Below are positions 2,354 through 10,284 of a DNA stretch of 16,951 nucleotides, in pieces; positions within the stretch are counted from its first letter, which is position 1, and the number at the start of each line of letters is the position of its first letter. The notes under the pieces were generated by a model, which had not been told where the DNA came from, made no database searches, and saw only the letters and a list, made by a program, of their open reading frames with translations. Where the stretch lies: IMG/VR virus record IMGVR_UViG_3300009149_000021, one strand, 5' to 3'. The translations under genes were made by a program, and so were the position numbers. Origin of the DNA: a virus. Lineage: Duplodnaviria; Heunggongvirae; Uroviricota; Caudoviricetes.

Positions 2354-2388
2354 AAAAAAAAGCTCAGCATGTTGTATCATGCGAGCTT
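2354..2388 (-). terminator. Intrinsic terminator
   Basis: Minus strand AAGCTC-GCATG-atacaa-CATGC-t-GAGCTT running into a T-run. Overlaps the stop codon of the YqgF-like gene. Confidence 0.8.
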
Positions 2389-2982
2389 TATTTGAGTATA
2401 CAGCCATCGTTTATAAATTAAATAGGCGGCGATTTCATCACGTTGTTTCTTGGAAGCATCGTGATGGCGATTAGCTTGGATGGTTGTAAATGATTCGTTA
2501 ACAAAATAATATCTTTTTCCGGTATATCGCATATAAAGTACTATTATCCTATTAAAACAAAACATAAAACTATCACGTCTGCCATTAAACTTTCCAATGA
2601 CGACGTTTTTATATTCATCAATAACCTTTAGTATATCCTGGGTTTTAATCGTCTTGCTTGTGCCATTGCTAGCAAAATACAAACCGGTTACTGATGTTCC
2701 GAGATCTATGGACACTGTTGAATCATGTTGCTCTATTCCTCTTCCGACTGGTTTGTGTACCCTTATAATTTTCGACGGTGTAATAAGGTATACCAGCTTA
2801 TTTAATCTAGTAAGAATATTCACATACAGATGCACATAGTTGTTGTAAGACTGATTTGATACAAACCTGGAGTCTAGCTCTAGACAGACTTTGTTTGTCA
2901 TTTTTAATTCATCGAAGAATTGTTCATATGACAAATTTTTTCCATCCTTAATTATATAACGTCCAGATAGTAAGCAAATCAT
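2377..2982 (-). CDS. YqgF/RuvX-like RNase H-fold nuclease with about 90-aa N-terminal extension
   Basis: C-terminal half has SIDLGTSVTG, VVIG, FVNESFTTIQA and DEIAAYLIY, matching in order the YqgF pattern (DxG, VVG, DERxTT, DxxAAxxIL). Start moved to ATG 2982 because GGAGG lies within the first codons of the track ORF. Confidence 0.7.
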   Translation of the reverse strand: MICLLSGRYIIKDGKNLSYEQFFDELKMTNKVCLELDSRFVSNQSYNNYVHLYVNILTRLNKLVYLITPSKIIRVHKPVGRGIEQHDSTVSIDLGTSVTGLYFASNGTSKTIKTQDILKVIDEYKNVVIGKFNGRRDSFMFCFNRIIVLYMRYTGKRYYFVNESFTTIQANRHHDASKKQRDEIAAYLIYKRWLYTQIKLA

Positions 2983-3003
2983 GCTTCCTCCACGCATTCC
3001 GAA

Positions 3004-3438
3004 TTAGGTTTGTTCAACCTCTTCCGATTCTTGGTCGGTTTCTTCCGATTCTTGAACACTCTCTTCCTCAATTTTGATTTCTTGAGGTGTCACTGATTCG
3101 ATCTGCTCTTTTGTTATTTCCAAGCTCATTCTGTCTATGTTCAGAATGATTCCTTCATAATCTGCAAAGCCATCTGCTTCCATTTTATCCATCACTGGAT
3201 CAAATAGCTTGCCGATTTTGGATGCCAGAAAATCGGATGGGACACCAACAGTCATGCCATCTTTAGATTTGAAGTAACAATAATCAGGTGAACAATCAAT
3301 TTTCTTACAGAAGAGAATCTTGACCTGATCACATCCCTCCACTATGTCTTTTAGCTGAACAGACCCGACGAAATTGTTTTGCATAAATACCGCAACAATC
3401 TTAGGTTCAACAAACAAGACCTGAACCTCAATCTTCAC
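3004..3438 (-). CDS. Hypothetical protein with Glu-rich C-terminal tail
   Basis: 144 aa, GTG start with AGGAGG SD, ends EEESVQESEETDQESEEVEQT. Confidence 0.82.
   Translation of the reverse strand: MKIEVQVLFVEPKIVAVFMQNNFVGSVQLKDIVEGCDQVKILFCKKIDCSPDYCYFKSKDGMTVGVPSDFLASKIGKLFDPVMDKMEADGFADYEGIILNIDRMSLEITKEQIESVTPQEIKIEEESVQESEETDQESEEVEQT
3020..3054. repeat. 14-bp direct repeat with 21-bp period, encoding QESEE twice
   Basis: TCTTCCGATTCTTG at 3020-3033 and 3041-3054. Confidence 0.75.
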
Positions 3439-3476
3439 TAATGCCTCCTAAAAATTCTTATACTCATACTATGCAC

Positions 3477-3512
3477 TTATCTTCCCTCGATTCTCCCTGT
3501 GACCCCAGAAAT
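3477..3512 (-). CDS. Candidate micro-peptide (M)SGVTGRIEGR with AUU start, or a decayed peptide gene
   Basis: Orphan SD AAAGGAGG (3525-3518), TTTAA spacer, then ATT TCT GGG GTC ACA GGG AGA ATC GAG GGA AGA TAA. Resembles the N-terminus of the 26-aa peptide at 5064-5144. Confidence 0.3.
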   Translation of the reverse strand: MSGVTGRIEGR

Positions 3513-3540
3513 TTAAACCTCCTTTCTTTCTATATATTTA

Positions 3541-4209
3541 TTAGATGGTTGCTGATATTGTTGGAGATCCATATCGCAAACCACAATATGCATCAGTTGA
3601 CTCAGTTGACGTGTATGTATAATATTGTGTTGATGCTGTGATTGATGGTGTTGAAACATATGTTGTTGCCCATGTTCCATAATTCGACTGATCCGGTTGA
3701 TGGAGGCAATGGTCATTAGCATCATTCAATTTAGAATATTTTTCTGAATATTCAGTGTATGAAATATTATTTTTAACAACATTCACCGCCAGTGATATTA
3801 TTTTTTGGAATATTTCATTATCATAATTAAGAAACAATGATAGGCATTTTTCACAACTATAATTAATTGCATTATATCTTAAATTGCTGAAAACACCTTC
3901 GTCTTTTGTAAAGAATATTTTTCCACGTGTATTCCCATAAAATAATCTTCTCAACGTGTTGCAATCGTGGAATTCATAAAACTTCTTCGTCAGAAATCTT
4001 ACAATGTTACCAACATATTGCAATGATTTTTCCGAATGAATCTCGCAGCTAATTTGAGCAACATTGATAGAAAATATCATCACTGTTTTGAGATTTTTCA
4101 TATCATTAAGAGTAATAGTTATTTTTGGTGTATCGGATGTAACCATCATTACAAAGAAACTTCTCTTTCCAAACATCATAAAATTTCTATGTCCAACTGT
4201 ATTAAACAT
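3541..4209 (-). CDS. Hypothetical protein with Thr/Ser/Tyr-rich C-terminal tail
   Basis: ORF in track (3541-4263). More likely start is ATG 4209, overlapping the ATP-grasp stop (ATGTTTAA). No recognised domain. Confidence 0.72.
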   Translation of the reverse strand: MFNTVGHRNFMMFGKRSFFVMMVTSDTPKITITLNDMKNLKTVMIFSINVAQISCEIHSEKSLQYVGNIVRFLTKKFYEFHDCNTLRRLFYGNTRGKIFFTKDEGVFSNLRYNAINYSCEKCLSLFLNYDNEIFQKIISLAVNVVKNNISYTEYSEKYSKLNDANDHCLHQPDQSNYGTWATTYVSTPSITASTQYYTYTSTESTDAYCGLRYGSPTISATI

Positions 4210-4987
4210 GCTCCATTTCAACACCCTCTTCCGAAGCAGATCGTCCTGTATCTGTATTATCATTCAACTTTCCTTTGATGTATTTTCTAAATGCCTTGTA
4301 TACAAAATTTGCTGATGTTGCATTTGATAAACACGGTGACGAATTTCCTTCCACACAATGTGCGTTCCCTTCAAGATCATAAATTATATCAAATGATGCT
4401 ACAACTATATCCAGTTCATTGATATATTCTGTTATTTTAGAAACGACGGTCTCATCATTATATGATGACATTTCATATTTCCATCCATTGGCTCCTGTTC
4501 TGACAAGCAGACTTCCTGGGTTGTCCCACTTCTGCGTCCAGATCTTTTCTTGCCAAAGGGAATTTCCATATTTATCTACGAATAATCTATATTCCTTTTT
4601 ACTTTTTATAAATTTATTTATAAATTTGTATTCGAGTCCAGATAATAACTGTCGCTGAAATCCAAATAATATCAAATGACCTGTTCCATTCATATGATAT
4701 TTCTGGTGGACGATATAAATTTCATCATCCTGCATCTCACAGATTTTCACTCGTTCTATCTCATATGGTAGCCCTTTCCTATTTGTGGAAAGTCTTCGTA
4801 TGCCTTTTTTACAATTAACGTCGAAGAGCCTCCCGGCTCCATCGTCATATGAATTGCCCCATCTAATTAATATATCGCATGGCTCCGATTCTGGAGCACA
4901 CTCACAATTGAATAACCCAGCTATTGCCTGAGCTGATTCCATAGTATACTTTTCATTATAAACAACGAACATACTCTGATCAAACAT
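4202..4987 (-). CDS. ATP-grasp amide/peptide ligase (phage phiEco32-type / YheC-D-like)
   Basis: IRWG, HxxGxG loop, KKEYRLFV, VRTGANGW and FDII...CVEGNSSP (ExN metal-binding motif). Start set to ATG 4987 from the SD AAAGGAGTG. Confidence 0.82.
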   Translation of the reverse strand: MFDQSMFVVYNEKYTMESAQAIAGLFNCECAPESEPCDILIRWGNSYDDGAGRLFDVNCKKGIRRLSTNRKGLPYEIERVKICEMQDDEIYIVHQKYHMNGTGHLILFGFQRQLLSGLEYKFINKFIKSKKEYRLFVDKYGNSLWQEKIWTQKWDNPGSLLVRTGANGWKYEMSSYNDETVVSKITEYINELDIVVASFDIIYDLEGNAHCVEGNSSPCLSNATSANFVYKAFRKYIKGKLNDNTDTGRSASEEGVEMEHV

Positions 4988-5022
4988 ATAATTTTTCACT
5001 CCTTTGGCAACAAAATTTTAAT

Positions 5023-5051
5023 CTTGGATGTGAGGGCCAGTCACATCCAAG
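5023..5051. promoter_or_regulatory. Perfect 11-bp stem-loop between the peptide gene and ATP-grasp
   Basis: CTTGGATGTGA-gggccag-TCACATCCAAG. No immediate U-run on either strand, so it is an RNA stability or attenuation element rather than a clear terminator. Confidence 0.6.
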
Positions 5052-5063
5052 TTGACGTTATAA

Positions 5064-5144
5064 TTATTCTAATAATACTTCACACTCACTACATGGCCCT
5101 AACGGGCCTACAAAACTAATTGCGCCAGTTATGAATCCTGACAT
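5064..5144 (-). CDS. Unannotated 26-aa peptide MSGFITGAISFVGPLGPCSECEVLLE
   Basis: Below the ORF-track cut-off. ATG preceded by AAAGGAGGTGGTGATTTAA, TAA stop, co-oriented with and lying between the two ligase genes. Confidence 0.65.
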   Translation of the reverse strand: MSGFITGAISFVGPLGPCSECEVLLE

Positions 5145-5515
5145 TTAAATCACCACCTCCTTTGTGTGATCTTGGTTTTATTTCGGCCTTTACAACACTT
5201 ATACTTCACATCAATCTATAACAAGATTACAAAATAATTATAAATCTATATGTTATATGCTACCCGCCAAACAAATATTTACATTATTTCATAAAAATGG
5301 AACAATTGATACTTCATATAGAATTTCTGGGTAGCTACACGCACCTCAGAAAAATGTAAAATTTTTCAACCCCTATCGTAATATCGTCTCACGAATGTGT
5401 TATATCAAACTTTTTTATCAGAATTGAATATAACTCATGAAACAGGTATGCATCTGTAGAGATGAGTTGGATGTATGCAATCATCCACCACAATTCCAGT
5501 GAAAATAGATTTATT

Positions 5516-5539
5516 AAAAAAATACACCAATAATGATGT
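5516..5539 (-). terminator. Possible weak intrinsic terminator after the COOH-NH2 ligase
   Basis: Minus strand ACATCA-ttat-TGGTGT (one G-U pair) followed by A and T7, about 45 nt after the stop. Confidence 0.3.
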
Positions 5540-5582
5540 GGCCGAAACAAATCTATTAAATCGTGGATTTAAGAAATTGAAA

Positions 5583-6392
5583 TTAAATTTCAATTTTATT
5601 ATCTGCGATATATTTCTGAATTATCGCATTTGCCTTGACGCAGTATGTCTTTGGCATTTTAGTCATGAAATTTTCCCATGTCTCCATATTGACCTCGGAT
5701 GGCAACATCTTTCCTCGCACTCTGTGACTATTCCACATGTTGTAGTATGGAAGGAACATCCTCCACTCTTTGGGAGACAGAACTGATTTTATATATTTCA
5801 AATGAGTCTTATAATTGACAAGTGTGCTGCCAAATAATTCAACATTGAAATATGTTGAGTACACTATAGATAAAATGCAGAATGCCCATCTTGGATCAGA
5901 TAACCAGGAAGATGGTGTGCGCCATTCTACCGATTTTTTATGATCCTCACGGAACTCATTGCTTTTTCCATAACCCGATTGTTCAACCCTTGTCTTTCGA
6001 CCGGGCTCACATAACAAGTATTTATGCTTTTCCCATTCATTCAGAACTTGCCGTATCTCATCTTTCTGTGGGCATTTGTCGAAATGAATATGTCCTCCTG
6101 TTGGAGGAGATCCGACTCCGCCCGCAATCATAATAAACTTATCAATTGAGGGATTCAATTTCTTAAATGCCTTCTCGACCATCACCAACGATATTCCCAT
6201 CTGAGCGATCACAAAAAATGGCTTCCCAGGATCCGGACGGAGTTCAACAACTCTATTTGAATGATCATATCCAATTCTCCCTCCACTTGGAAATGCCGGA
6301 TATTTAAATGACGTAAATTCCGATCCTGATTTTACCTTTGCTTTATAGCCGAATTCTGGATCACATCCTACGAACTTACCTTTATTAGACAC
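5583..6392 (-). CDS. COOH-NH2 ligase type 2 (phiEco32-like, glutamine synthetase / gamma-glutamylcysteine ligase fold)
   Basis: VGCDPEF, GYD...VELRPDP, GGHIHF, R...GYG...FR and VEWRTPSSWL motifs. GTG start with AGGAGG SD. Confidence 0.85.
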   Translation of the reverse strand: MSNKGKFVGCDPEFGYKAKVKSGSEFTSFKYPAFPSGGRIGYDHSNRVVELRPDPGKPFFVIAQMGISLVMVEKAFKKLNPSIDKFIMIAGGVGSPPTGGHIHFDKCPQKDEIRQVLNEWEKHKYLLCEPGRKTRVEQSGYGKSNEFREDHKKSVEWRTPSSWLSDPRWAFCILSIVYSTYFNVELFGSTLVNYKTHLKYIKSVLSPKEWRMFLPYYNMWNSHRVRGKMLPSEVNMETWENFMTKMPKTYCVKANAIIQKYIADNKIEI

Positions 6393-6400
6393 GAAAAAAC

Positions 6401-6476
6401 CTCCTGGGTTGATAAGGGTTTTACGGGTGGTATACTACCACCCCAACCCTCGAGCTAGACTCCACAGCTTGCGCTG
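6401..6476 (-). promoter_or_regulatory. GC-rich structured 5' leader of the ligase gene
   Basis: CAGC-GCAA-GCTG GNRA hairpin (6465-6476), perfect 8-bp stem 6425-6432/6436-6443 extended by 6415-6420/6445-6450, and an alternative pairing 6406-6411/6444-6449 next to the SD. Confidence 0.45.
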
Positions 6477-6549
6477 CTTTGTGAATAAAAATATTTGCCT
6501 ATTCAAATAATTAATATATGTACTTTTTTGAGATTAACAAAAATTAGCA

Positions 6550-6556
6550 GTTCTCG
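6550..6556 (-). promoter_or_regulatory. Recurrent motif CGAGAAC (putative promoter of the ligase unit)
   Basis: Minus strand TTTACGAGAACTG, pointing toward the structured leader and ligase. Confidence 0.35.
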
Positions 6557-6751
6557 TAAATACTAAATTAATAATATTGAAATAATAGAAGTGATGAAAT
6601 AAAAATATCTTTTGTAAAAAAGATTATTTTGTATATTATATGATATTAAATAAAGATAACAAATTTTACTTATGTGTATTAATAAACTATAGAGAATTAT
6701 TTTTATGTAAAAAATTTTAAACATAAATTTTTTGCTTACGCGTGTATAAAC

Positions 6752-6785
6752 GGATGGTCAACGTTCTTACGAACGCAACACATCC
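6752..6785 (-). terminator. Long GNRA-capped hairpin downstream of the helicase (possible terminator)
   Basis: Minus strand GGAUG(u)GUUG-CGUUC-GUAA-GAACG(u)UGAC-CAUCC. G-U pairs work only on the minus strand. Followed by a short GUUUAU tail, 42 nt after the helicase stop. Confidence 0.45.
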
Positions 6786-6826
6786 TTCCAATTTATACCT
6801 TTTATATCTTTAAGAGAACTAACTAG

Positions 6827-9800
6827 TTAATTCAAGAAAGCGAATTCTTTTATATGAATTCTTTCCTTCCAAACGAACATAAGTTTATTAGGCTTATCAA
6901 TTGTTTGAAGAATTGATTTATTTGCAAAGTCCGTAACCTTTACAATTTTATCATAGATGAATGATCCTATCTTCAAAATTGATTTCCATAAATCTTGTTT
7001 ATCATGATGTAATGTATAATTTTGTAAATAAACATTATAATTGCTTTCAAAGTTTTTCCCACCACGATATATTAAATAGTTAGTCAATTTGTCATTCAGC
7101 GACAAATTGCAATTTTTATCTATGAATTTAGAAATAGTTTTCTTATCATACTTATTTTTATTTATACAATTCAATAGTGTATCTGATATTGGTTTATAAA
7201 ATAATTCTTTGAATCTATTATATATAGAACTACCAACTGCAGTGCATGATTTTTGATAATATATATTTCTAGATTGTAATGTATTAAATAGAGAAAGTAC
7301 TGTTTTTGAAAATATCTCCAATTTTTTATTTTCGATGATTGTTGGTTTGAGAATACTAAAACAATAATCATCCATGGTTGAGTGATCATAATTTTTGATC
7401 AGACAAATTTTTGCTGTTTCAATTTGAAAGATAAAATGGATTATATAATAACAATCCAACATAGTCTCAACATTGATATGATGTTCCGTTCCATTCAAAG
7501 ATTTCTGGAATATCGCAAGCATTCTGGACATTCCTTTTTTATTGTGCAATGAAAATGATTTTAATAGTTTATCTAGTTCATGGTTGTATTCAGATTCTAT
7601 TCTATTAAATAATTGATCGTTATTCTTTTTAACATGTGAGAATATTTTTCTCATTGATTGCATTTCTTTTTCCAAACTGTTTATAATGATATTGTTGAAT
7701 CCAAGTTTCCATTTTTCTTTATAGATTTTCTTATTAATTTTTTTGGATAAAAAAACATTTTCCTTTTCATTTAGATTGGTGGATTCTTTTATTGCGTTGT
7801 AAACCCACTCACTTATTGTTTTTAATGATTCTCTGCCTGTGTCAAATTTTTTGTCAATTTTAGTCACATCGTCAACTTTATTTTCTTTATCTTTCTTAAT
7901 TTCATTATCGTTGTAGTCACAGCGTTTAATATTATATCTCGAACGCTCCATGGCTTCCAAAGCGATTCCTTTCTTATCATTGTATGCATATATATAAACA
8001 GCTGGTTTCTTTTTAAGAATCTTTCCACGTTCACCGAAGAATCTTCCAAGGGTCTGATTTATAGAATCTGTCATCTTGTTTACTGAAATCTCATAATATT
8101 TTTCTTTGAGATCTTCATTACGATTCAATTCATCAAATATAGAATCTTCATCGGGTCCAAGTTTATTTCCATATACTTTCATAAATGTTTTTGCAAGTGA
8201 TTTTGGATTCTCTGGCGAAATGAAATAATGAACTTCTTTAATAGGATTATCAGACTTATCTCTTTTAATAAATATGTTACTTCCTTTGATAGATGTAGAT
8301 GTTATATCTCCCTCGAACTGATTGTTTGAAATAACTAATATGGATTCGGGATCATCTTTCTTAAGTGATTTTATAAATTCACGAATAGAATCTTTATTTT
8401 TAGAAATAGGAAGCAGATCATTATATTCATTTTTTTCTGTAAAAATATATGCGAGTGCAGATTCACTTTCATTTTCAATTTTATTTGTCCTGTCTTCAAT
8501 ATTAACACCATCAAAATTGTTTTTCATATATTCAACAGGAATTATTTCTGTTGTTAGAATTATTGTCTGGATATCATTCTCGTAAAAGATGTTAAAGAAA
8601 TTTTTCTTTTGACTGTCTGGTACGAATAATAGATTACCAGCTTTGAAATTTTTATCTTGAAAATTTAATGGATTTATAATTTTGAATTCGTTATCTTTGA
8701 AAAGATCCTTATTCATTGAGAGTTCTGGATCATCTAGAAATTTGACAGCATCTTCAATATTTTTATTATACTTTCTTTTTAATTTGGATTTTAAATTATT
8801 TATCCTTCTTGACACATTGTGCCTCACTTCATCAGTATCAGCCTCTTTCATATGTTTTTCAGCTAGCTTTATCTGATCCATTATAGTTTCGAGACTATCG
8901 TATTTTGAAGAATACACGGCAGATGCTGCATTCAGTTCCTCTATAGTTAGGAATGGTGAATTCAATAAAGGAAACTCGTCGAATATCAGTGTGGCAGAAT
9001 CAGACCAATATTTTAGATTTTTCTCATTCATTTGTTTGAAGTGATATAAGAAATTACTTTGGTCTATGAAAAATATTTTATTGTTATGTTCTGTAATTGT
9101 ATGTTTGAATATATCATTATATTGTTTTGTCGCTTCAGCTAATTCCTTTTTGATTTCATTTAATAATTTTTTACTTAAGAATAATATCTTTATTTTGTAT
9201 TTGTCATGGTTTGTATAATTTCCATTGCCAGGGAACACTTCAGATTTGTCCAATTGTATATCTTCTATTATTATAGGTTTCTTGGATTCAAAATATGATT
9301 CGTCAATTTTATATGATATTGATCTATAGTCAGGATTCATACAATAACCATCATCATCTATCTTTTCCAAAAATCTTTTTGTTATCCACCATGATGTCTT
9401 CAGATCGTTAGTGAGAAACTTCTCTACATTATTAAACACCTTGAGGTCCATACAATGATTATATGCGACTGGGTCGGTTTTCTGCATGCTTTCGACTACA
9501 ACCAAACCAATGCCATTTAGTTTTGGATATCTGTGAATATTTTTAATTATTTCATTTAGATGTTTGTAGATCATTCTCGAACTTACCACAAAATTTCCAC
9601 TTAGCGGATTCTTATTAGTTGTATTTTGAGAATTATGCTTCCATTGAAAACGCACCAGTTCTTTCTCTCTGGTATTTTTGTGCTCAAATCTTATGCTCTG
9701 TGAATCTGTTTTAGAATCTTTCGACACCAAAAAACCATCATATATAAATTCAGTATGCTCGGCATTTATGCCAGACTTGATGTTATCATATAAATCTGGA

Positions 9801-10090
9801 AATGATGACTTTATAATTTTTCTTAGTATTTCACTTTTGGATTTTAACAATTCTGGGTTTTTTGATTTTTTGTTTTTTGATTGTCCGTGGATGGAACTGT
9901 AACTATTGTATTTTTCGACTGTCTGTTTTATGGACGGGCATATATAAAATATTGCCTTATCTCCATATGAGTCAATTATATCTGGAGGCGGGTTTGAGAG
10001 ATTATTGAAAATGCCAAACGACTTTCCACAACCCTCATTCCCACGAAGAACAGTAAATACACTGTTTAATTCTTCATTGTTAATCAACAT
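6827..10090 (-). CDS. Large divergent SF2 helicase-like ATPase
   Basis: Motif I GNEGCGKS, Ia IFYICPS, II LIFDEFP (about residue 371), III ILTTE and VI NQTLGRFFGER (about residue 679). SD AGAAAGGAG. Confidence 0.65.
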   Translation of the reverse strand: MLINNEELNSVFTVLRGNEGCGKSFGIFNNLSNPPPDIIDSYGDKAIFYICPSIKQTVEKYNSYSSIHGQSKNKKSKNPELLKSKSEILRKIIKSSFPDLYDNIKSGINAEHTEFIYDGFLVSKDSKTDSQSIRFEHKNTREKELVRFQWKHNSQNTTNKNPLSGNFVVSSRMIYKHLNEIIKNIHRYPKLNGIGLVVVESMQKTDPVAYNHCMDLKVFNNVEKFLTNDLKTSWWITKRFLEKIDDDGYCMNPDYRSISYKIDESYFESKKPIIIEDIQLDKSEVFPGNGNYTNHDKYKIKILFLSKKLLNEIKKELAEATKQYNDIFKHTITEHNNKIFFIDQSNFLYHFKQMNEKNLKYWSDSATLIFDEFPLLNSPFLTIEELNAASAVYSSKYDSLETIMDQIKLAEKHMKEADTDEVRHNVSRRINNLKSKLKRKYNKNIEDAVKFLDDPELSMNKDLFKDNEFKIINPLNFQDKNFKAGNLLFVPDSQKKNFFNIFYENDIQTIILTTEIIPVEYMKNNFDGVNIEDRTNKIENESESALAYIFTEKNEYNDLLPISKNKDSIREFIKSLKKDDPESILVISNNQFEGDITSTSIKGSNIFIKRDKSDNPIKEVHYFISPENPKSLAKTFMKVYGNKLGPDEDSIFDELNRNEDLKEKYYEISVNKMTDSINQTLGRFFGERGKILKKKPAVYIYAYNDKKGIALEAMERSRYNIKRCDYNDNEIKKDKENKVDDVTKIDKKFDTGRESLKTISEWVYNAIKESTNLNEKENVFLSKKINKKIYKEKWKLGFNNIIINSLEKEMQSMRKIFSHVKKNNDQLFNRIESEYNHELDKLLKSFSLHNKKGMSRMLAIFQKSLNGTEHHINVETMLDCYYIIHFIFQIETAKICLIKNYDHSTMDDYCFSILKPTIIENKKLEIFSKTVLSLFNTLQSRNIYYQKSCTAVGSSIYNRFKELFYKPISDTLLNCINKNKYDKKTISKFIDKNCNLSLNDKLTNYLIYRGGKNFESNYNVYLQNYTLHHDKQDLWKSILKIGSFIYDKIVKVTDFANKSILQTIDKPNKLMFVWKERIHIKEFAFLN

Positions 10091-10178: not shown

Positions 10179-10185
10179 GTTCTCT
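10179..10185 (-). promoter_or_regulatory. Recurrent motif AGAGAAC upstream of the helicase
   Basis: Minus strand CTTTTAGAGAACAAAA in the divergent intergenic region. Confidence 0.45.
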
Positions 10186-10277
10186 AAAAGAAAGAAATAA
10201 CGCAATCGTACTGCCTCTGGCATACAAGTAATGAATATCTGTACTTTTAAGCACTAAAAAAATATATCTTAATTTTT

Positions 10278-10284
10278 AGAGAAC
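10278..10284 (+). promoter_or_regulatory. Recurrent motif AGAGAAC upstream of the rightward gene block
   Basis: TTTTTAGAGAACAATT, back-to-back with the 10179 copy. Confidence 0.45.

Follow-up and report, generated by a model that had tools for sequence, protein, structure and literature searches.

A lineage-specific, split form of the phiEco32-type amidoligase cassette in a jumbo phage, and the long spacer between its enzyme genes

Between a COOH-NH2 ligase gene and an ATP-grasp gene of a tailed virus (Caudoviricetes; IMG/VR record IMGVR_UViG_3300009149_000021) lies a 26-codon open reading frame (ORF) with a near-perfect Shine-Dalgarno (SD) sequence, raising the question of whether the encoded peptide is the substrate of the two enzymes or the DNA in which it lies is maintained for a different reason. 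A preliminary description of the window (the whole stretch of DNA analysed, 16,951 nt) had favored the first possibility, taking the embedded peptide(s) as substrate. The record measures 56 kb and is 18% complete, and the counts given below for the phage's own genome refer to these 56 kb. The phiEco32-type cassette, in which both enzyme families occur, was predicted by Iyer, Abhiman, Burroughs and Aravind (2009; cited in PMC10580990), and according to the citing source no substrate is known for it.

Enzymes and layout of the locus

All parts of the locus listed in the preliminary description are present and co-oriented on the minus strand. In the order of transcription they are:

6512-6556, minus strand: promoter-like block upstream of the ligase, with TTTACGAGAAC from 6556 followed by AAGTACATATATTA at 6525-6512
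6393-6476, minus strand: 5' leader of the ligase, untranslated and folding into a stable hairpin (-34 kcal/mol, z -2.55)
5583-6392, minus strand: COOH-NH2 ligase type 2 (GCS/GS-like amidoligase, PF14395), paralog 1, 269 aa
4988-5582, minus strand: long intercistronic spacer, 583 nt, with nucleotide-level constraint
5154-5163, minus strand: near-perfect SD AAAGGAGGTG, 9-of-9 anti-SD match
5064-5144, minus strand: 26-codon ORF behind AAAGGAGGTG, the candidate upstream ORF (uORF) of an ATP-grasp leader
5076-5093, minus strand: GU-rich block TGTAGTGAGTGTGAAGTA within this ORF
5023-5051, minus strand: perfect 11-bp hairpin, loop CUGGCCC (7 nt), -16 kcal/mol
5009-5020, minus strand: conserved TAAAATTTTGTT between the hairpin and the ATP-grasp ribosome binding site, an identical 12-mer in the related locus L003
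4202-4987, minus strand: RimK/LysX-like ATP-grasp ligase, 261 aa (AF2, Foldseek, hhalign)
3541-4263, minus strand: orphan 240-aa protein with a Thr-rich C-terminal tail, overlapping the ATP-grasp stop
3477-3525, minus strand: second AAAGGAGGT plus TTTAAAT element, with no ATG/GTG/TTG start

The identity proposed earlier for the two enzymes stands. The ligase matches PF14395 (Pfam, 55.3 bits where the cut-off is 25, E 7.4e-15), in agreement with the scan of the phage's own genome, and carries GCDPE, ExRP, GGHxH and EWR where the family pattern is GxDPE, ExRP, GGHxH and ExR, these columns being invariant both in a 66-sequence alignment, which includes the window ligase itself, and in a 4-sequence alignment. 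Its orthologues show 62% (locus L002) and 49-51% identity. Pfam searches of the ATP-grasp protein and its two orthologues gave zero matches even at E 10; despite this, the assignment was corroborated by its fold, a profile alignment and invariant residues. The AF2 model built on 108 sequences (pLDDT 86.9, pTM 0.84) matched, at a Foldseek probability of 1.0, PDB structures of synapsin C, LysX/ArgX, TTLL6, RiPP ATP-grasps, RimK and Ddl, with the graspetide ligases 7mgv and 7drm among the nearest solved structures. By hhalign, the profile of this protein aligned with RimK-type ATP-grasps of other phage cassettes (E 2.7e-4; the cassette protein is PF08443-positive), and the protein belongs to a family of more than 1800 members of roughly 250 aa, many of them with PF08443. 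The Mg/ATP residues K148, D200, E213 and N215 are invariant in the 108-sequence alignment, and the enzymes of the window and L003 are 63% identical.

The orphan gene matched zero families in Pfam, PHROGs, NCBIfam and PADLOC. An overlapping gene follows the ATP-grasp gene in all three relatives, with an identity of only 30%, and its position is a SNP hotspot between the strains L003 and L004. The Thr-rich tail noted previously is real in the 240-aa protein but absent from the L003/L004 orthologues, so that it is not a conserved trait. As for the related micro-ORF described at the end of the block, the second AAAGGAGGT is indeed present, in DNA about 75% similar to the SD/start region of the 26-codon ORF, but it has no start codon of the three types searched and no counterpart in L003.

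The pairing of both amide-ligase families had been related to phiEco32-like phages, and the phiEco32 gene set bears this out, with a PF14395 protein (phi32_86), a glutamine amidotransferase (GATase, phi32_83), an ATP-grasp (phi32_80) and a YtfP/GGCT-like protein (phi32_77) encoded together. Two to three PF14395 genes, a GATase and a RimK-like ATP-grasp are combined in phiEco32 and in unrelated phage contigs. In the phage studied here, ligase and ATP-grasp likewise form one co-oriented block, the order of which is repeated in three relatives; the two genes are not packed tightly or coupled in translation, as the 583-nt spacer separates them. In the sister jumbo phage G001 a second PF14395 paralog is followed by a spacer of ~540 nt and a class-II GATase (PF13230), the two loci being about 52 kb apart, and the second ligase and the class-II GATase also occur together in locus L014. 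No glutamine amidotransferase had been seen in the window, and a search for the class-II GATase in the 56-kb record found none either. This is attributed to the incompleteness of the record which, by synteny with G001, probably ends before the second locus, so that the predicted place of this gene would lie beyond its end.

The locus thus shares with the phiEco32-type cassette (phi32_77-88) the PF14395 ligase, the RimK-like ATP-grasp and, in the sister phage, the class-II GATase, as well as the frequent presence of two or three ligase paralogs and a position among replication and early genes. It differs in that its genes are divided, judging by the sister phage, between two loci about 50 kb from each other, in the conserved 540-640-nt spacer with an SD-led ORF between ligase and partner enzyme, and in that no GGCT/YtfP gene was seen and the orphan gene overlaps the ATP-grasp gene. 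It is a lineage-specific, split jumbo-phage form of this cassette.

Transcription as one unit is suggested by the distribution of promoter-like motifs, which lie upstream of the ligase and were not found in the spacer when TTTACGAGAAC and AAGTACATATATTA were searched there. Both motifs recur on the matching strand upstream of other genes in the 56-kb record, and the block is kept in L002 and, in part, in L003. The structured leader ascribed to the ligase is supported by its fold and by an analogous hairpin of different sequence at the same place in L002 (z -4.27).

Conservation of the spacer

In every relative, and at both paralog loci, the ligase gene is followed by 540-640 nt of spacer, whereas the compact cassettes (phiEco32, L025, L027 and L030) have no such spacer. 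Over 367 columns aligned with L002, the identity of the spacer amounts to 73%, whereas the ligase coding sequence reaches 64% and its third codon positions 45%, and the lengths of its indels are not multiples of three. In the comparison with L003, the ~170-nt leader from SD to hairpin reaches about 75-81% identity, versus 59% in the coding DNA of the ligase and 68% in that of the ATP-grasp. The motif AAAATCCA(A/C)GAT stands directly after the ligase stop in both p1 and p2 spacers, and in strain L007 the p2 spacer is 93 nt shorter.

The 26-codon ORF and its SD are present as described previously. The existence of such an ORF is in itself weak evidence, because SD(5-mer)-led ORFs of at least 15 codons appeared by chance in about 20-26% of shuffled spacers; what exceeds chance is the 9-mer SD and the conserved position. 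The 56-kb record has only two copies of the 9-mer AAAGGAGGT, both inside the operon, and in L003 GAGGTGATC is found at the position aligned to the window SD. Within the ORF, 16/18 bases of the GU-rich block are the same in L003, where its reading frame is shifted by one base; the conserved block TGTAGTnAGTGTGnAGTA falls in another reading frame there. That the GU-rich block is conserved and yet read out of frame points to conservation of the RNA and not of the peptide. Indels of 1, 2, 4, 7 and 8 nt lie inside the ORF, and between the peptides of the window and L003, the only full orthologous locus for this comparison, only the SD, the start position and the first few codons correspond, the C-terminal half not being conserved.

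The perfect hairpin upstream of the ATP-grasp gene was also verified (11 pairs, z -4.2, with equally stable structures in 1/200 shuffles). A 12-bp hairpin occupies the same place in L003 (stem GGATGTGA vs GGAGGTGAC); the two stems differ by compensatory changes, and the loop CUGGCC and the 3' flank are conserved. In this flank, TAAAATTTTGTT is predicted to pair with upstream sequence, enclosing the hairpin, both in the window phage and in L003, and a scan of the record showed that it is not a genome-wide repeated motif. Two further spacer hairpins are found in both the window and L002 when each is folded independently by MFE; one hairpin shows two compensatory double changes, and among all changed pairs the compensatory fraction between window and L002 is 27%, compared to 4-16% in slid controls.

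Some observations count against an RNA leader. The MFE z-scores of the spacer are no better than those of neighbouring coding DNA, and the RNAalifold covariation term is weak, covariation being thin because only three orthologous p1 sequences, one of them truncated, are at hand. In addition, the two AAAGGAGGT elements have 5/7 N-terminal residues in common, with differences mostly at third positions. The Rfam 15 covariance models gave no match at E <= 1 in positions 3300-6900 of the window and, for the loci L002, L012, L014 and L005, chance-level matches far below the gathering scores, none naming a spacer family; a tRNA search of the spacer found none.

The element resembles leaders of the trp/pyrBI type and other cases of translation-dependent RNA remodelling in having a strong-SD ORF, a stable hairpin 12-22 nt further on and then a ribosome binding site, and in that the peptide, unlike position and RNA, is poorly conserved. 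It differs from them in its intercistronic location and in having no regulatory codon run, no clear alternative antiterminator and no stem-adjacent U-tract; the U-run begins 9-10 nt downstream of the stem, and the hairpin 5023-5051 is not listed by an intrinsic-terminator scan. Altogether, for the short ORF between the enzymes a place in a conserved regulatory RNA leader is more likely than a role as their substrate. For the full proposal, in which the phiEco32-type cassette is combined with a spacer acting in cis as an RNA leader that controls the downstream enzyme, the chances appear about even.

Other readings of the spacer and its short ORF

The spacer might instead give rise to an independent product that has nothing to do with the chemistry of the ligases. 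It could be a stable ncRNA processed from the operon transcript; it could also be a small hydrophobic protein whose mRNA, like those of type I toxins, has a long structured 5' UTR and a terminator-like hairpin. Such a product would be in line with the constraint on the roughly 370 nt that precede the uORF, with the conserved hairpins, with the hydrophobic character of the spacer-encoded peptides and with the motif shared by p1 and p2 spacers after the ligase stop. However, at two loci, and across three phage lineages, the element is always placed between a ligase paralog and the enzyme that partners it, which speaks for a functional tie to the cassette. As the spacer moreover has no promoter motif of its own and no conserved antisense ORF or RNA, and 93 nt of it can be missing at the p2 locus (L007), an independent product is considered unlikely, although it is the alternative that survives best.

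Ranking below it, and unlikely as well, is the view that the spacer is ordinary regulatory DNA between two transcription units, with a hairpin that stabilises RNA or terminates transcription, the 26-codon ORF being there by chance. SD-led ORFs often arise by chance, no real gene follows about half of the record's SD-like hexamers, and the MFE z-scores are unexceptional, all of which would be expected under this view. It accounts poorly for a 9-of-9 anti-SD match with a start codon at the same aligned position in L003, for about 80% identity over 170 nt, above that of the flanking genes, and for the recurrence of the spacer behind both ligase paralogs.

According to the third alternative, the spacer ORFs would encode ribosomal precursor or scaffold peptides, one per ligase paralog, to be modified or extended by the ligase, the ATP-grasp and/or the amidotransferase in a RiPP-, pearlin-, PGM1- or LysW-like manner. 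A precursor followed by a hairpin and then by the enzymes is a common layout of RiPP loci, mccA being an example, and the order of this locus matches it. SD-led short ORFs are found in the 3' half of all full-length spacers at both paralog loci, and among the structural neighbours of the ATP-grasp are enzymes whose substrates are peptide or protein carboxylates (LysX/ArgX with LysW, RimK, TTLL6, 7mgv, 7drm). As in graspetides/microviridins, PGM1 and the LysW-LysX/ArgX systems, a small ORF stands beside an ATP-grasp of this kind, and the window peptide has one CxxC, a C-terminal Glu and the residues for graspetide-type cross-linking.

In contrast with those systems, the peptide is not conserved, and no RRE or other leader-recognition domain, leader protease or exporter was found among the window proteins with Pfam, PHROG or NCBIfam. 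The peptides of the window and L003 cannot be aligned past the first few codons, owing to frame-breaking indels in otherwise conserved DNA, and a precursor conserved across orthologous loci, as in RiPP clusters, was not observed between them. The preliminary description had itself named lack of conservation at homologous loci as telling against its proposal, which is essentially what these indels amount to. Asp, Glu and Lys are all missing from the L003 peptide, which carries CxC instead of CxxC and ends in Val, so that neither ester/amide macrocyclisation nor C-terminal Glu ligation can be a conserved chemistry. Graspetide- and LysW-type chemistry were both rejected as the conserved function on these grounds, as L003 lacks the core of Ser/Thr or Lys plus Asp/Glu of the former and the conserved C-terminal Glu and zinc-ribbon Cys pairs of the latter. 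Besides, hundreds of compact cassettes encode the same enzyme families without such a spacer, and ORFs of this size are frequent in shuffled spacers. The peptide as enzyme substrate is therefore the most doubtful of the three alternatives.

The version of this idea that extends to the whole jumbo-phage clade, each ligase paralog having its own ribosomal mini-peptide as scaffold or substrate for the partner enzyme, is held to be the least probable of all, and is kept in consideration because of the coding-like conservation of an ORF in the amidotransferase-locus spacers. In these spacers, an ORF of 29-34 codons holds its frame over 17 codons, with 0/11 substitutions at codon position 2 and conservative replacements, resembling a real small protein and counting against the RNA-leader interpretation. 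The ORFs have H-x-x-F-R-R-G-T-Y-x-M in common, followed by a variable Cys-containing C-terminal part, a pattern reminiscent of a leader/core layout.

Possible mechanism and significance

Under the RNA-leader interpretation, the GCS/GS-like COOH-NH2 ligase and the RimK/LysX-like ATP-grasp would form one operon driven by a phage promoter at about 6512-6556, and the second ligase paralog and the class-II (Ntn) glutamine amidotransferase would constitute a distant second locus. GCS-type ligases (GshA/EgtA), ATP-grasps (GshB/BtrJ) and the Ntn amidohydrolase EgtC make and remove gamma-glutamyl amide bonds. The same three enzyme superfamilies are brought together in the glutathione, ergothioneine and butirosin pathways. 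The product of both loci of the phage, acting together, would most likely be a small amide of the glutamate/glutamine type or a short non-ribosomal peptide, which they build or trim; alternatively, the enzymes may attach such an amide or peptide to a protein. The phage enzymes differ from those of these pathways in that no sequence-level orthology was found: NCBIfam gave no match, nor did a PDB sequence search with the ATP-grasp protein return any.

The 583-nt spacer would be a conserved, structured, cis-acting RNA, the last ~170 nt of which may serve as the ATP-grasp leader, comprising the strong SD, a translated uORF with a variable peptide, the GU-rich block, the covarying hairpin and the conserved UAAAAUUUUGUU, which could pair back across the hairpin. 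Ribosomes on the uORF, or an RNA-bound factor or ligand, would remodel the helices of the leader and in this way set the level of the ATP-grasp and the downstream protein relative to that of the ligase, or else the transcript may be stabilised or processed. The 26-aa peptide would then be a by-product and not a substrate.

The phiEco32-type amidoligase cassette, predicted in 2009, is present in hundreds of phages. The locus described here does not reveal the product or target of the cassette, but one attractive candidate, the peptide encoded in the spacer as substrate, drops out at the ATP-grasp locus. Two further facts emerge: one jumbo-phage clade has the cassette divided into two modules, each consisting of a ligase and a partner enzyme, and each module carries a long spacer more conserved than the surrounding genes. 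If the mini-peptide reading were true, it would provide the first substrate for a phage amidoligase cassette and a virus-encoded RiPP-like product. If, on the other hand, the spacer RNA senses a substrate or product of the pathway, its ligand would lead directly to what the cassette produces.

Operon organization and genome context

The window is part of an IMG/VR record of 56 kb whose estimated completeness is 18% (CheckV), and the source is therefore a jumbo phage; near-identical copies (99.97%) are present in two other samples. All the parts of the locus listed in the preliminary description were confirmed, in the following arrangement:

2377-10090, minus strand: gene block, with every gene in the interval on this strand
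6512-6556, minus strand: promoter-like block, TTTACGAGAAC and then AAGTACATATATTA, both motifs being repeated upstream of other genes of the record
6393-6476, minus strand: hairpin-forming 5' leader ahead of the 269-aa ligase gene
5583-6392, minus strand: COOH-NH2 ligase gene, 269 aa (PF14395)
Between the 269-aa and 261-aa genes, minus strand: spacer of 583 nt
5064-5144, minus strand: 26-codon ORF (uORF) behind AAAGGAGGTG
4202-4987, minus strand: ATP-grasp gene, 261 aa
3541-4263, minus strand: ORF3, 240 aa, overlapping the end of the ATP-grasp gene
Past ORF3, minus strand: gap of 100 nt with a second strong SD inside, lacking a canonical start
Downstream of the gap, minus strand: a 144-aa acidic-tailed protein, a weakly RuvX-like protein and, further on, the clamp loader

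The ligase and ATP-grasp genes share a single promoter-like block, and the spacer carries no such motif. The oriented motifs TTT-n-(A/C)GAGAAC and AAGTACAnATATT precede genes on the matching strand in the window (6512-6556, 10185-10278, 15631 and 2326) and across the whole record. They probably serve as promoters, read by the RNA polymerase of the phage itself or by that of the host, and they are arranged in a different order at the ligase gene than at the gene for a 1087-aa protein (6827-10090, minus strand). This protein could be assigned to neither a Pfam nor a PHROG family; a conserved, terminator-like hairpin (about 6730-6790) lies behind its gene, and in the sister phage a counterpart of conserved size (1088 aa) occupies the equivalent position, immediately upstream of the ligase. 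The 144-aa protein (3004-3438, minus strand) ends in a C-terminal tail that is rich in Glu and Ser and strongly acidic, matches the PolC OB region weakly (E 0.007), and may be a single-strand DNA-binding protein of the phage, encoded between the ligase operon and the RuvX-like and clamp-loader genes.

The ligase, the ATP-grasp and a split cassette

The product of the 269-aa gene matches PF14395, "phiEco32-like COOH-NH2 ligase type 2", above the cut-off (E 7.4e-15) and retains the invariant residues of the family. Neither blastn and tblastn searches of a collection of phages, run with the locus and the ligase, nor a first scan of viral contigs with the ligase alone gave a match. The 261-aa protein has no Pfam match, and a sequence search of the PDB was likewise negative; its profile, nonetheless, aligns over about 180 residues to RimK-positive proteins encoded next to PF14395 genes and GATase genes on other phage contigs, and a profile search retrieved a family exceeding 1800 proteins, each about 250 aa long and many of them with PF08443. 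An AF2 model built on a 3-sequence alignment reached a pLDDT of only 31.6, and one built on 108 sequences was confident (pLDDT 86.9, pTM 0.84). Foldseek at probability 1.0 returned ATP-grasp enzymes only (synapsin C domain, LysX/ArgX, TTLL6, graspetide ligases, RimK and Ddl), and the Lys, Asp and E-x-N columns of the alignment are invariant; hhalign against the ATP-grasp of phiEco32 was only marginal. Altogether, profile alignment, profile search, model and fold comparison with invariant columns assign the protein to the ATP-grasp superfamily. Because of these four lines of evidence and of the PF14395 match, both enzyme calls made earlier are correct. The two proteins belong, as intact enzymes, to the amidoligase cassette of phages. 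The window proteins had no matches in PADLOC or NCBIfam.

In phiEco32 the PF14395 gene (phi32_86), an amidotransferase (phi32_83), the ATP-grasp (phi32_80) and a YtfP/GGCT-like gene (phi32_77) are tightly packed. Compact blocks were also seen in randomly sampled contigs of the ligase and ATP-grasp families, where 2 or 3 paralogs of PF14395 accompany a GATase_6/7 gene and the ATP-grasp. In the source available on the cassette, its role is a prediction from 2009 of cell-wall or metabolite modification, made without experiment (PMC10580990). The sister phage (119 kb, 38% complete) encodes two PF14395 paralogs. One of these, accompanied by the ATP-grasp (locus L003), is orthologous to the window locus; the other (L005) lies about 52 kb away and precedes a PF13230 class-II GATase beginning Met-Cys. 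A third complete copy of the ligase and ATP-grasp locus is carried by an 8,910-bp ENA contig (sample ERZ27252253). This second module is also present in two more phages:

L005 8001-10145, L014 3595-5777 and L012: PF14395 paralog, spacer of ~540 nt and PF13230 class-II amidotransferase (Met-Cys start)

The preliminary description had seen no glutamine amidotransferase partner. None was found in the 56-kb record, 18% complete as it is; the absence is probably accounted for by the second module, which by synteny would fall just past the record end in the phage of the window. The sister phage also has, some 7 kb away from its second ligase locus, a TnpB/Cas12f-like gene of only 213 aa (OrfB_IS605 and Cas12f1-like_TNB; L005 306-947).

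Thus, in contrast to the compact cassette of phiEco32 and the sampled contigs, that of the window clade is split, with long spacers between each ligase and its partner. The enzyme assignment and family context are already known; what is new is the split architecture and the long spacers, more conserved than the genes and carrying a uORF and a hairpin.

The overlap of ORF3 with the ATP-grasp stop is constant across relatives, and the Thr-rich tail ascribed to this protein turned out to be lineage-specific rather than a general feature. ORF3 is a SNP hotspot between two strains, L003 and L004 (99.3% identical): 33 of their 49 differences fall in the N-terminal half of its orthologue (L003 10159-10515), while the ligase and spacer are identical and the ATP-grasp gene has one difference, near its 3' end. 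ORF3 is hence locally hypervariable, in line with a rapidly evolving protein of an accessory or host-interaction kind; it shows no similarity to the conserved unknown proteins of one compact cassette.

The 26-codon ORF, its hairpin and the peptide hypothesis

The AAAGGAGGTG ahead of the 26-codon ORF matches the anti-SD at 9/9 positions and occurs only twice in the 56 kb. A perfect 11-bp hairpin (z -4.2) starts 12 bases past the stop codon and is followed by the conserved UAAAAUUUUGUU and the ATP-grasp RBS. The order in L003 is the same: behind GAGGTGATC comes an ORF of 18-25 codons with a UUG/AUG start, then a hairpin of 12 bp, and the identical 12-mer precedes the RBS. The stems differ, GGAUGUGA in the window vs GGAGGUGAC in L003, and the loop CUGGCC is kept in both, a pattern that reads as covariation in the aligned sequences. 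The possibility that TAAAATTTTGTT and the hairpin form a terminator repeated genome-wide was rejected, as they are not repeated in that way.

It had been proposed that the 26-aa peptide is the substrate of the two enzymes, a proposal that is not supported at the window locus. A stretch of ~170 nt is about 75-81% identical between the window and L003, vs 59% and 68% in the flanking genes, and its alignment contains indels of 1, 2, 4, 7 and 8 nt inside the ORF that break the frame. The best-conserved block, TGTAGTnAGTGTGnAGTA, reads Cys-Ser-Glu-Cys-Glu-Val in the window and lies one base out of frame in L003, whose peptide therefore ends in Val and has neither an acidic residue nor Lys. The CxxC and the terminal Glu of the window peptide are thus not conserved, and the residues of the L003 peptide exclude graspetide-type or LysW-type chemistry as the conserved function of these 63%-identical ATP-grasps. 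The peptide, in short, is not conserved at the homologous locus, and the pattern in the last ~170 nt indicates that selection maintains the RNA, together with a short, putatively translated frame as such, and not the peptide. The mere presence of an SD-led ORF is weak evidence, since about 20-26% of shuffled spacers have one of 15 codons or more, and the Cys enrichment of five small peptides is at least partly due to GT-rich DNA.

Two observations keep the idea of a peptide role alive at the sequence level. An ORF of 29-34 codons is present in the spacers of the second, GATase module; its first 17 codons align without indels between L005 and L014, with 0/11 substitutions at codon position 2, conservative replacements and the motif H-[VI]-[SG]-F-R-R-G-T-Y-[HY]-M, and this frame is also open in the truncated L012. 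In addition, the codons behind an orphan SD at 3525 resemble the start of the 26-aa ORF, most of the differences being at third positions (roughly p 0.02 by our own count); this element has no canonical start in the window and no counterpart in L003.

The spacers as putative RNA leaders

Spacers of 537-639 nt separate each ligase paralog from its partner in this jumbo-phage clade only. That of the window is 73% identical over 367 aligned columns to the orthologous one of L002, with indels that are not multiples of three; the adjoining ligase genes share 64% DNA identity and 45% at third codon positions. Six-frame translation comparison for a hidden or recoded protein gene gave nothing above shuffled controls for the ATP-grasp spacers, the sole signal among all spacers being the short ORF of the second module; an antisense 103-codon ORF (5475-5786, plus strand) was rejected as not conserved in L002, as was the 44-codon ORF of L002, interrupted by stops in the window. 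Rfam and ARAGORN detected no known RNA family and no tRNA. When folded independently (MFE), the spacers of the window and L002 yield two hairpins in common, one with a conserved A-rich loop and changed stems, the other with two compensatory double substitutions, and 27% of the changed pairs are compensatory vs 4-16% in slid controls; RNAalifold on three ATP-grasp-locus spacers gave a weak covariation term. The MFE of whole spacers (z -2.8 to -4.4) was not used as evidence of structure because neighbouring coding DNA, scanned in sliding windows, scores in a similar range. Identity, indels and compensatory changes among these three sequences are signs, not proof, of a function at the RNA level.

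Other elements were noted in the spacers. AAAATCCA(A/C)GAT lies 13-45 nt past the ligase stop codon at both paralog loci (5569-5557 in the window and the spacer starts of L002, L003 and L005), forms a weak A/U hairpin, followed in L005 by a T-run, and may act as a processing or termination signal that both loci acquired when the ligase was duplicated. A hairpin of the second-module spacer conserves its apical CCGAAGG while the stems changed. In one strain, L007, 93 nt are missing from the 5' portion of this spacer relative to L005 (8923-9015), the small ORF region being identical; part of the spacer is therefore dispensable, or the assemblies differ.

The spacer, above all its last 170 nt, is under nucleotide-level constraint and contains a covarying hairpin, and in the window and L003 alike the conserved UAAAAUUUUGUU has a predicted pairing partner within the uORF or immediately past it. 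Most likely, the spacer is a cis-acting RNA leader in which translation of the uORF, or binding of a factor or ligand, would remodel the helix enclosing the hairpin; this remodelling would adjust, relative to the ligase, how far the ATP-grasp and downstream messages are expressed, processed or kept stable. As each cassette combines several ATP-dependent ligases with an Ntn amidotransferase (plus GGCT in phiEco32), the enzymes most probably assemble or trim, stepwise, a glutamate/glutamine-type amide or a short non-ribosomal peptide, by analogy with the chemistry of glutathione, ergothioneine and butirosin.
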